32,000 nucleotides of DNA from Trichodesmium erythraeum IMS101 (lineage in GTDB: Bacteria > Cyanobacteriota > Cyanobacteriia > Cyanobacteriales > Microcoleaceae), in the NCBI RefSeq assembly GCF_000014265.1, contig NC_008312.1:5760001-5792000 (forward strand), written 5' to 3'. Shown here one piece after another: positions 7,223 through 10,205 of this stretch. Below the pieces are notes generated by a model. The model was not told where the DNA came from and made no database searches. It saw nothing but the letters and a program-made list of their open reading frames with translations. Within the stretch, counting starts at the first letter, position 1. Each line of letters starts with the position of its first letter. The position numbers were made by a program, and so were the translations under genes.

Positions 7223-10205
7223 TAGACACCTCCAAAAATTTTTCAAATCCTTCTTTCCCTTGACTAAGGATTCTTAATAATTGTAAAAAATACATTATCT
7301 AATCGAACGCCATTCTAAATATTTAGAGTATTTATTATTAATAATTCAATATTTTATTGCCTCTTTTTTTTAAACTAAATTCTTTTGAATTTATACTAAA
7401 ATCAAGCTTCCTATTCTTAATCTAACTAAGCCACATATTCTTATAAATACTTTTTTATAATTACCATCTCTTAACCTGAAGCTTTCCCTAACTAATCAAA
7501 ATATTTTTATCAATCTAATCATATATTCTATAAAGATTATTTTTTTTCGCTTTTTTTAAATTTTATTGTTTGATTTATAGTGAAATTTATATTTTTTATT
7601 GCCTTTTTATTAGCTTTATGTATCGTGATTTTTAAGGCAATGGCAATTTTATATAATTTATCGACCTATTTTTTTAATTTGGATTAAATTATTTGGTTAT
7701 TTTTTAAGTAAATTCATATCAATTTTTTACCCTCCTTATTATATGAATACATCTACTATTTATCTTATTCAATAGTATTTATTACTTTATTTTTAAATGT
7801 ATACTTTTTCTTTTTTTTCAGATTTTTTTGTTCTTGTTATCATCATTCAGCCTACTTATACTTTATTTTGTGCTATCTAAAATTAATTCTTATTCTATTC
7901 TTAATCTGAAGCCTTCCCTAACTAATCAAAATATTTTTATCAATCTAATCATATATTCTATAAAGATTATTTTTTTTCGCTTTTTTTAAATTTTATTGTT
8001 TGATTTATAGTGAAATTTATATTTTTTATTGCCGTTTTATTACCTTTATGTATCGTGATTTTTAAGGCAATGGCAATTTTATATAATTTATCGACCTATT
8101 TTTTTTATTTGGATTAAATTCTTTGGTTATTTTTTAAGTAAACTTATATCAATTTTTTACCCTCCTTATTATATGAATACATCTACTATTTATCTTATTC
8201 AAGAGTAGTTATTACTTTATTTTTAAATGTATACCTTTTATTTTTTTTCAGATTTTTTTGTTCTTGTTATCATCATTCAGCCTACTTATACTTTATTTTG
8301 TGCTATCTAAAATTAATTCTTATTCTATTCTTAATCTGAAGCCTTCCCTAACTAATCAAAATATTTTTATCAATCTAATCATATATTCTATAAAGATTAT
8401 TTTTTTTCGCTTTTTTTAAATTTTATTGTTTGATTTATAGTGAAATTTATATTTTTTATTGCCGTTTTATTAGCTTTATGTATCGTGATTTTTAAGGCAA
8501 TGGCAATTTTATATAATTTATCGACCTATTTTTTTTATTTGGATTAAATTCTTTGGTTATTTTTTAAGTAAATTTATATCAATTTTTTACCCTCCTTATT
8601 ATAAGAATACATCTACTATTTATCTTATTCAATAGTAGTTATTACTTTATTTTTAAATGTATACCTTTTCTTTTTTTTCAGATTTTTTTTGTTCTTGTTC
8701 TAATCATTCAGCCTACTTATACTTTATTTTGTGCTATCTAAAATTAATTCTTATTCTATTCTTAATCTGAAGCTTTCCCTATCTAATCAAAATATTTTTA
8801 TCAATCTAATCATATATTCTATAAAGATTATTTTTTTTCGCTTTTTTTAAATTTTATTGTTTGATTTATAGTGAAATTTATATTTTTTATTGCCGTTTTA
8901 TTAGCTTTATGTATCGTGATTTTTAAGGCAATGGCAATTTTATATAATTTATCGACCTATTTTTTTTATTTGGATTAAATTATTTGGTTATTTTTTAAGT
9001 AAATTCATATCAATTTTTTACCCTCCTTATTATATGAATACATCTACTATTTATCTTATTCAATAGTAGTTATTACTTTATTTTTAAATGTATACCTTTT
9101 CTTTTTTTTCAGATTTTTTTGTTCTTGTTATCATCATTCAGCCTACTTATACTTTATTTTGTGCTATCTAAAATTAATTCTTATTCTCTTCTTAATCTGA
9201 AGCCTTCCCTAACTAATCAAAATATTTTTATCAATCTAATCATATATTCTATAAAGATTATTTTTTTTCGCTTTTTTTAAATTTTATTGTTTGATTTATA
9301 GTGAAATTTATATTTTTTATTGCCGTTTTATTAGCTTTATGTATCGTACTTTTTAAGGCAATGGCAATTTTATATAATTTATCGACCTATTTTTTTTATT
9401 TGGATTAAATTATTTGGTTATTTTTTAAGTAAATTTATATCAATTTTTTACCCTCCTTATTATATGAATACATCTACTATTTATCTTATTCAATAGTAGT
9501 TATTACTTTATTTTTAAATGTATACTTTTTCTTGTTTTTCAGATTTTTTTGTTCTTGTTATCATCATTCAGCCTACTTATACTTTATTTTGTGCTATCTA
9601 AAATTAATTCTTATTCTATTAAAAATTATTGTATCCATAAATATTTATCTTCTTTTTCTGATAATTTTTATAATCAACTTTGTAGCAATAATTATCTCCA
9701 CATCTACCCAAGAATAAAACATATTTTTAGCAGTTAATTCAGTTGCTTCAAAGTTAATTTATAGGATTTAAAATATTTGTATATGATGTAAATCGTATAA
9801 AAGTAAAATAATTTATTATTCCACTTTTAATCTTTTTTTCTACCAACCTCTGATGTTATAAATCATTTTTTTATCTGAGCTAAATAGGTAAGTATAAAAA
9901 CTTAGATATCTTAATCTTTTTATACTGACTTTAAGAGCTTCTGCACAGTTAATTTGAAGTGAATTTATATCATCTTAATCGTAAAAAAAATCAAAATATA
10001 CTTATTTATTGATTTATGCTCTTTTATTTTCAGATATAAATTGAGAATTTCCTATTAATTTTTTAAATCACTTAGTATTAATATCTATAACTATTTTGGC
10101 TTCTTTTGGGTAGTAATTTATATACTCTAATATTTTGTTCATTAGTATATTTTTTCACAAATTAACCCCAAGATTATAGCTTAATTTTGATTTTGGAGAC
10201 ATCTA
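7223..10205. repeat. Copy A of a dispersed T-rich non-coding element, containing the 430-bp tandem array
   Basis: Collinear with 17553-18685 at several anchors (7223/17553, 7424/17760, unit end/18108, 9680/18282, 10191/18671). Framed by TAGACACCTCCAAAA (7223-7237) and, inverted, TTTTGGAGACATCTA (10191-10205). No ORF of 60 aa or more on either strand until 9532. Confidence 0.7.
7471..9620. repeat. Tandem repeat, 430/431-bp unit x 5.0 copies
   Basis: The landmark ACTAATCAAA (one unit reads TCTAATCAAA) recurs at 7491, 7921, 8351, 8782 and 9212, giving spacings of 430, 430, 431 and 430. Manual comparison of units 2 and 3 shows about 9 differences, roughly 98 percent identity. Confidence 0.95.

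Follow-up and report, generated by a model that had tools for sequence, protein, structure and literature searches.

Introduction

Copy-number polymorphism is the practical hallmark of bacterial loci with a variable number of tandem repeats (VNTR). In the Nostocales, the NsiR1 locus upstream of hetF carries short tandem repeats, each with a defined promoter and terminator, and these repeats are conserved across genera. The subject of the present analysis is an array of five 430-bp non-coding tandem repeats in Trichodesmium erythraeum IMS101. It lies in a stretch of 32,000 nucleotides (assembly GCF_000014265.1, contig NC_008312.1, positions 5,760,001 to 5,792,000 of the forward strand), which is called the window below and from the first letter of which all coordinates are counted.

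Approx. 40% of the T. erythraeum genome is non-coding, and repeats and selfish DNA abound in it (PMC4143802, PMC9950141); of all transcription start sites (TSS) in strain IMS101, 26.8% are intergenic (PMC4143802). The same genome has, upstream of Tery_0080, a seven-unit array with a length of >6 kb; each of its repeats has one TSS, and no primary transcripts are more abundant than those of this array (PMC4143802). Its RNA is about 260 nt long and accounts for 44.7% of the primary reads (PMC4143802). In the literature no paper was found that mentions Tery_3755 to Tery_3759, nor one on the array between them, and a 2025 transcriptome paper on IMS101 makes no mention of repeats or ncRNAs (non-coding RNAs). 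As argued below, this array is probably a neutral, lineage-specific tandem amplification of unconstrained intergenic DNA, without a selected sequence-specific function.

Structure and composition of the array

A previous reading of the window, made from the sequence only, had proposed a five-fold head-to-tail amplification of a 430-bp non-coding unit. Tandem Repeats Finder (TRF), the unit spacings and the alignment of the units all agreed with this. Five head-to-tail units fill 7469-9620 (TRF: period 430, 5.0 copies, 97% matches, score 4127), and their start-to-start spacings in the repeat search of the window were 430, 430, 431 and 430. The unit limits were set from TRF, the repeat search and the alignments, the position of the island from a motif search and the alignment with the paralog described below.

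7469-7898: unit 1
7899-8328: unit 2
8329-8759: unit 3, 431 bp owing to one extra T
8760-9189: unit 4
9190-9620: unit 5
9021-9028, plus strand: CCCTCCTT island in unit 4; in the other units at 7730, 8160, 8590 and 9451

In the MAFFT alignment of the five units the pairs differed at 7-12 positions per 430 (mean 9.2, or 2.1%), which bears out the approximately 98% identity given before; for units 2 and 3 the count was 8 differences, against about 9 estimated. Every unit has private changes, namely at unit positions 136, 208 and 310 in unit 1, 145 and 342 in unit 2, 354 (the inserted T), 371 and 373 in unit 3, 23 and 429 in unit 4, and 159, 160 and 345 in unit 5. At unit position 276 an A sets unit 3 apart from the other four, and the same A was found in one copy of the Trichodesmium sp. 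ALOHA_ZT_67 assembly (L002). A mutation spectrum like that of diversity-generating retroelements, or an otherwise unusual one, was considered and rejected, the ratio of transitions to transversions (about 7:16) being not clearly different from the approximately 1:1 of other non-coding comparisons.

The plus strand of the array consists of 52.8% T, 27.1% A, 12.3% C and 7.8% G (GC about 20%), so it is indeed T-rich and G-poor, as had been noted. Each unit has one copy of the island CCCTCCTT, these five being the only ones in the window, and the ATTGCC...GGCAAT pair could be found in all five units. The sequence-only reading held that every unit keeps both of these together with a minus-strand ATG mini-ORF (open reading frame) that follows AAGGAGGG. 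For the two islands this was correct; the mini-ORF has its ATG in units 1 and 4 only, while units 2, 3 and 5 read ATA (unit position 247). Similarly, a maximum ORF length of about 27 codons holds for ATG starts only. When GTG and TTG starts are allowed, there are plus-strand ORFs of 35 and 53 amino acids (aa) per unit; no ORF of at least 25 aa was found on the minus strand of the array.

On one side of the array is ftsH, on the other a frameshifted RTX gene, whose start codon is 879 bp downstream of the array. Within the window the unit matched only itself and a non-coding paralog, and it had no similarity to ftsH, to the RTX gene or to the parDE relic situated between ftsH and the array. The repeat search gave no inverted pairs of at least 40 nt.

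The paralogous block and the origin of the array

One diverged copy of the unit, with paralogous flanks, is present at 17796-18227, in agreement with the single much-diverged copy claimed earlier. Its identity to the unit is 68% by blastn and 65.7% in a global alignment. The parts of the block at the two loci, as defined by alignments, are as follows.

7340-7468: left flank of the ancestral block, paralogous to 17660-17795 (66% identity); the match extends to 7323-7468 versus 17650-17795
9621-10205: right flank of the ancestral block; 9621-9870 matches 18228-18479 at 70%, and 10019-10205 matches 18499-18685 at 56-64%
17660-18685: the whole block as a paralog with one unit only; the homologue of the unit occupies 17796-18227, and the paralog lies inside the 17209-23971 segment

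Thus a T-rich non-coding block of about 1 kb is present in at least two diverged copies in the IMS101 genome. The second locus keeps the order of left flank, one unit and right flank, while at the first locus exactly the 430-bp piece has been multiplied. The identity to the paralog is even across the boundaries (66.2% for the left flank, 65.7% for the unit and 69.7% for the right flank). Since the unit is no better conserved than its flanks, its boundaries do not delimit a conserved module, and from these alignments the amplified piece appears to be an arbitrary window on a longer homologous block. A constant period with high mutual identity of the copies, and a single-copy progenitor whose flanks are continuous with the unit, are the structural marks of a long-unit tandem duplication, and both could be observed here. 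The hallmarks of insertion sequences (IS) or of miniature inverted-repeat transposable elements (MITE) were not seen, as in the alignment the block ends (7340/10205 and 17660/18685) bore no inverted termini, and there was no ORF.

The divergence of about 2% among the units, compared with about 33% between unit and paralog, makes the array much younger than the duplication that yielded the second locus. In this respect the amplification is young, as had been suggested; it nevertheless predates the divergence of the sampled strains (see below). The first duplication would have occurred by illegitimate recombination or replication slippage, there being 1-2 nt of microhomology at the junction, where ...TTCTAT is followed by TCTTAA.... 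With two 430-bp direct repeats in place, unequal homologous recombination between them, or slipped-strand replication, may have raised the number to five, after which the copies would have gathered their approximately 2% of independent point changes. Incidental transcription of such an array is possible, but it would not be what maintains it.

Some further observations concern the paralogous locus. The 6.8-kb segment 17209-23971, which lies between Tery_3759 and dndE and is absent in L006, in the sister species and in Okeania, contains the unit paralog, IS630-type transposase relics (approx. 19100-19370), two tandem arrays (69 bp x2 and 71 bp x2.9) and an intact IS630-family transposase at 22666-23757 (DDE_3 + HTH). 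The T. erythraeum-clade strain L006 is without 17196-24097, the part that carries the paralog and the IS630 copies. Two HIP1 octamers (GCGATCGC) are located at 7143 and 18488. The pairs 10019-10205/18499-18685 and 11636-11864/20116-20345 share an exact offset of 8480 bp, which may be a coincidence. A homologous interior between the paralogous blocks was rejected, since the 1431 bp between these two pairs are unrelated at the two loci, the identity on the diagonal being at background (29%).

The array in other assemblies

The sequence-only reading had allowed for a collapsed or artefactual array. Unit-to-unit junctions are present in independent assemblies, namely in the metagenome-assembled genome GCA_022448615.1 from NCBI (L002), in the ENA contig L004 and in the Tara contig L007. 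The other assemblies, all of them short-read, show one copy or two, have Ns in the array or break off within copy 2, which is consistent with collapse. Contig L003 was compared with IMS101 over 7.9 kb, and all 5 mismatches fell within unit 1, each of them being equal to the array consensus. This pattern indicates a collapse in the short-read contig and not an inflation of the reference. Taken together with the junctions, the private substitutions of the individual units argue that the array is not an artefact.

The variants typical of unit 2 (C223, C245, G305) and the A276 typical of unit 3 recur in contigs of strains with 97.9-99.7% flank identity. Since unit-specific variants are thus found in the contigs of other strains, the array predates those strain splits.

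Distribution outside the species

In Okeania the ancestral gene order is TPR protein, ftsH, parDE, RTX, the Tery_3759 homologue, dndE, comFB, thiD and ftsZ, and the genes at the locus are 82-88% identical to those of IMS101. The 3.3 kb with the T-rich block and the array had no detectable similarity to the syntenic sequence between ftsH and the RTX gene in Okeania sp. KiyG1: the local alignment score was 28, where shuffles gave 27.4 +/- 3.0 and the paralog within IMS101 gave 378. A sister Trichodesmium species (MO_231.B1-like), with genes that are 89% identical, has no counterpart at all of window positions 6223-14638 and 17209-23971.

The patterns of two conserved cores of the unit, described below, gave no match in the JGI metagenomes, a null which bears mainly on T. 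thiebautii, since the cluster listing suggests that contigs of T. thiebautii type and not of IMS101 type are present there; one of the two patterns had no match in IMG/VR. The unit with its right flank was without a match in phage or plasmid collections (distant mode). An exact 42-mer from the unit gave no relevant match in the genome contig collection, where the source genome is probably masked, and a protein-based scan of the same collection with the neighbouring HMGL-like gene gave nothing relevant either. Conservation across related genera, such as NsiR1 has, was thus not observed in Okeania, sister Trichodesmium, or the metagenome or viral scans. The absence of the unit from related genomes had been named beforehand as the sign of neutral junk amplification, and as far as tested (Okeania, sister Trichodesmium, metagenome scans) this absence was found.

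Relation to the RTX gene

The previous reading suggested, as one possible role, a hypervariable copy-number locus upstream of the RTX gene at 10499. The relevant features are as follows.

10499-11591, plus strand: gene for an RTX / 'choice-of-anchor K' calcium-binding protein, frameshifted in IMS101
10322-10498, plus strand: region upstream of the RTX gene conserved in Okeania (match 10322-11592, 83% identical overall)

The frameshift is due to a 5-bp deletion (CAATA) near 10681 in IMS101 and in IMS101-like field contigs, while the gene is intact (365 aa) in L002, L005 and L006. It is syntenic with its Okeania counterpart (78% aa identity) and has been lost in the sister Trichodesmium species. 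From the parDE relic to the RTX gene, no non-coding DNA other than the 177 bp at 10322-10498 is conserved, and the array lies about 700 bp upstream of this stretch. Since the array is outside the conserved 177 bp and the gene is frameshifted in IMS101, the proposed link is unlikely. The T-rich block was also considered as a conserved upstream region of the RTX family and was rejected, because only 177 bp are kept in Okeania and there is no RTX relic at the second locus.

Tests for function within the unit

The sequence-only reading had attributed possible functions to the islands and had called for an analysis of RNA structure. Rfam 15 gave no match at the gathering score in the window and none at E<=1 in 6100-10600. 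The fold of the whole unit was not significant against shuffles on either strand (z -1.56 for plus, -0.61 for minus). The hairpin formed by ATTGCC and GGCAAT was no more stable than shuffles (z -1.2; for unit 1, -0.7), and the paralog has no counterpart of it. The two islands are the worst-conserved parts in the comparison with the paralog (48% and 50% identity, against 66% for the whole unit), and CCCTCCTT is not kept there. These values do not favour a functional reading of the islands.

In 6100-10600 there were 27 sigma-70-like promoter matches, compared with 36.6 +/- 6.4 in shuffles, and no terminator-like site was found inside the array. A promoter and an intrinsic terminator in every repeat, as in NsiR1, could thus not be observed. 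As regards DNA curvature, the peak of the TT periodicity (2.06 at 11.0 bp) remained under the 95% null value of 2.26, that is, there is no 10-11-bp phasing of T-tracts above null.

Neither the 35-aa ORF nor the 53-aa ORF, which spans the unit junction, was ever called by gene callers in a collection of 15 billion proteins (exact look-up), and the 53-aa ORF had no homologue in that collection. The 35-aa GTG ORF has 6 variable nucleotide sites among the units and the copies in related contigs, 5 of which change the amino acid (codons read manually), and in the paralog it meets a stop at codon 13. The period of 430 is not a multiple of 3 and the longest ORFs have 35-53 aa, so the unit does not have the character of a protein-coding repeat.

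Two parts of the unit stand out in the comparison with the paralog.

8827-8870 (unit positions 68-111 in unit 4): conserved core A, 84% identical to the paralog, inside an invariant 112-bp stretch
9040-9105 (unit positions 281-346 in unit 4): conserved core B, 79% identical to the paralog

Core B contains an 8-bp inverted repeat, CTACTATT (9044-9051) and, after 10 nt, AATAGTAG (9062-9069), which is followed by GTTATTAYTTTATTTTTAAAWGTATA. Units 1 and 2 each lose one pair of this hairpin through a single substitution.

Weighing of the explanations

Several observations weigh against a neutral amplification, and most of them would fit an array of non-coding RNA (ncRNA) genes, in which each unit has its own promoter and a discrete ncRNA, and the amplification multiplies the dose. 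The array upstream of Tery_0080 is a precedent in the same genome, and its abundant transcription means that a non-conserved and repetitive character does not exclude strong transcription. Unit positions 24-135 (112 bp) are invariant among 14 unit sequences; by a rough estimate, P is about 0.04 for so long a gap among 25 variable sites. The local fold of core B has a z of about -2.5 both in the unit and in the paralog, and one position of its hairpin arms is changed on both sides in the paralog (T-A to C-G). The conserved cores and the hairpin with its double-sided change are weak hints of local constraint. Two promoter-like pairs recur at the 3' end of the units on the plus strand. TTTTCA-17-TATCAT, preceded by a TG, is present in all units but unit 3, and TTGTTA-17-TATACT is listed for those four units too. 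An RNA from the plus strand would contain CCCUCCUU, a motif similar to the anti-Shine-Dalgarno sequence. On the other hand, the promoter-like matches are below the shuffle expectation and unit 3 has lost one of the two recurrent sites; the array contains no terminator-like site, has no significant fold and gives no Rfam match; CCCTCCTT is not conserved in the paralog; and no homologue was found outside T. erythraeum. Moreover, interpolation from locus tags puts the locus at approx. 5.77 Mb, and Table 1 of PMC4143802, with 23 entries for highly expressed TSS, has no entry near that position. We therefore regard the per-unit ncRNA array as possible, though unlikely. Its stronger form is still more doubtful, namely that this would be a second repeat-array ncRNA locus, with a T. 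erythraeum-specific candidate ncRNA in each unit and the five-fold amplification as a dosage device. If one strong TSS per unit did exist, repeat-array ncRNAs would be a recurrent feature of Trichodesmium and not a single curiosity, the cores at unit positions 68-111 and 281-346 would be functional parts of the RNA or its promoter, and the tandem amplification of young lineage-specific ncRNA genes might be a recurrent route to highly expressed RNAs in this genome.

The remaining explanations fare worse. A cis-acting DNA element, whether as a scaffold for proteins, as an AT-rich structural spacer or as a regulator whose effect on the RTX gene or ftsH depends on copy number, would suit the 80% AT content and the T skew of the array, the 8-bp inverted repeat retained in both paralogs, and the distance of 879 bp to the RTX start codon. 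It is improbable, given that the array is outside the only 177 bp conserved upstream of the RTX gene in Okeania, that strains with an intact RTX gene carry the unit as well as IMS101 with its pseudogene, that the T-tracts show no helical phasing above null, that the inverted repeat loses one pair in units 1 and 2, and that there are no inverted repeats of at least 40 nt. An assembly artefact, that is, a true locus of one or two copies inflated in the reference, could be imagined from the short-read assemblies, in which the array appears as one copy or two, is gapped with Ns or is cut by a contig end. Mis-assembled identical reads would not create the private substitutions in all five units and the private 1-bp insertion, however, and the recurrence of variants typical of units 2 and 3 in contigs of other strains, the unit junctions in independent assemblies and the collapse signature in the L003 mismatches make this very improbable. 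We give hardly any credence to the encoding of small hydrophobic proteins, either by the 35-aa plus-strand GTG ORF or by the 6-codon minus-strand ORF behind AAGGAGGG. The former is present in every unit and the latter has this strong Shine-Dalgarno-like sequence 12 nt before its ATG in units 1 and 4; yet 5 of the 6 variable sites in the 35-aa ORF are non-synonymous and the paralog has its stop at codon 13, the mini-ORF starts with ATA in three of the five units, the 35-aa and 53-aa ORFs are uncalled in the protein collection and the latter is without a homologue there, and 430 is not a multiple of 3.

If the array is a neutral amplification, as we think probable, it matters little as it stands, being one more long-unit tandem repeat in a non-coding, repeat-rich genome. 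Its practical value is that of a site where short-read T. erythraeum assemblies collapse or break, and its copy number is a candidate marker for typing strains.

The neighbourhood of the array

The array had been described as lying in a 4.4-kb gene-free region. The array itself is non-coding, while the region around it contains a TnpB fragment and a parD-parE pseudogene. Exact protein look-ups gave FtsH (ABG52807/WP_011613138, Tery_3755), a 580-aa protein (Tery_3759) and FtsZ (ABG52815).

6299-6439, plus strand: C-terminal TnpB remnant, 46 aa, Pfam Cas12f1-like_TNB
6637-6980, minus strand: parD-parE toxin-antitoxin pseudogene with several in-frame stops, 77% DNA identity to the intact genes of Okeania sp. 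KiyG1

The intact syntenic parDE of Okeania sp. KiyG1 is at 3952-4539 of L024. With its parDE pseudogene, TnpB relic and frameshifted RTX gene, the interval around the array is a gene graveyard. A short-chain dehydrogenase (adh_short) fragment of 112 aa at 14037-14375 (minus strand), which in related contigs is broken up into pieces of 111 and 50-82 aa, is another pseudogene of this interval. After the TnpB remnant, within 6299-6560, two GC-rich hairpins (6542-6517 and 6452-6429) were scored as terminator-like on the minus strand; they may be remains of the 3' end of the element or of an omega-RNA region.

About 30 nt past the RTX stop codon, 11620-11675 contains a 20-bp perfect inverted repeat (GAAAATATACTATTTGTCAA, 16 nt, TTGACAAATAGTATATTTTC). 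Its right half together with about 190 bp (11636-11864) has a second copy at 20116-20345 (82% identity) and is present in other strains too; the inverted repeat could be a terminator or a small dispersed element.

Besides the 430-bp array, TRF detected three further tandem arrays in the same 32 kb. One of these, with a 73-bp period, occupies 14527-15322 just beyond the 3' end of Tery_3759 (TRF: 7.6 copies over 14696-15249, the rest being filled by diverged copies), and every unit of it contains a perfect 18-bp palindrome, AACTATTGCGCAATAGTT. Repeats of the 73-bp type are also present at two sites of the sister Trichodesmium locus L010 (4198-4370 and 6667-6844). The 73-bp repeat is thus conserved across species, unlike the 430-bp one.

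Comparison with known systems

The array has some likeness to NsiR1, being made of tandem repeats in a cyanobacterial intergenic region each of which is potentially a transcription unit. It differs from NsiR1 in having no terminators, promoter matches at chance level and no conservation beyond one species. A CRISPR array can be set aside, as the 430-bp units are contiguous and without spacers.

The resemblance to the array upstream of Tery_0080 is closer. Both are long-unit non-coding tandem arrays of the same genome; the copies of the Tery_0080 array are >96% identical (PMC4143802), and for most of its repeat no similarity to other genomes was reported, the authors invoking duplication (PMC4143802). 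Its units, however, are 736-973 bp long and each contains a partial duplicate of the adjacent gene, whereas here the unit has 430 bp and no gene fragment; furthermore, its TSS have been mapped experimentally in each repeat. The 430-bp array is therefore not filed in the Tery_0080 class: it resembles that array in kind and is without the embedded gene fragment. The array itself is not described in the literature found, its kind being already known in the IMS101 genome.

The best agreement is with the long-unit tandem duplications of bacteria (minisatellite or macrosatellite, VNTR-type). As in those loci, the copies are head-to-tail and non-coding, the period is fixed and the boundaries are arbitrary with minimal junction homology; in the present case the single-copy progenitor is visible in the paralog as well. 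The 430-bp unit is long for a bacterial VNTR. By the structural criteria applied to the DNA, we assign the array to the bacterial long-unit tandem duplications, and not to CRISPR, to the NsiR1 type or to an Rfam family, nor does it bear IS or MITE hallmarks.

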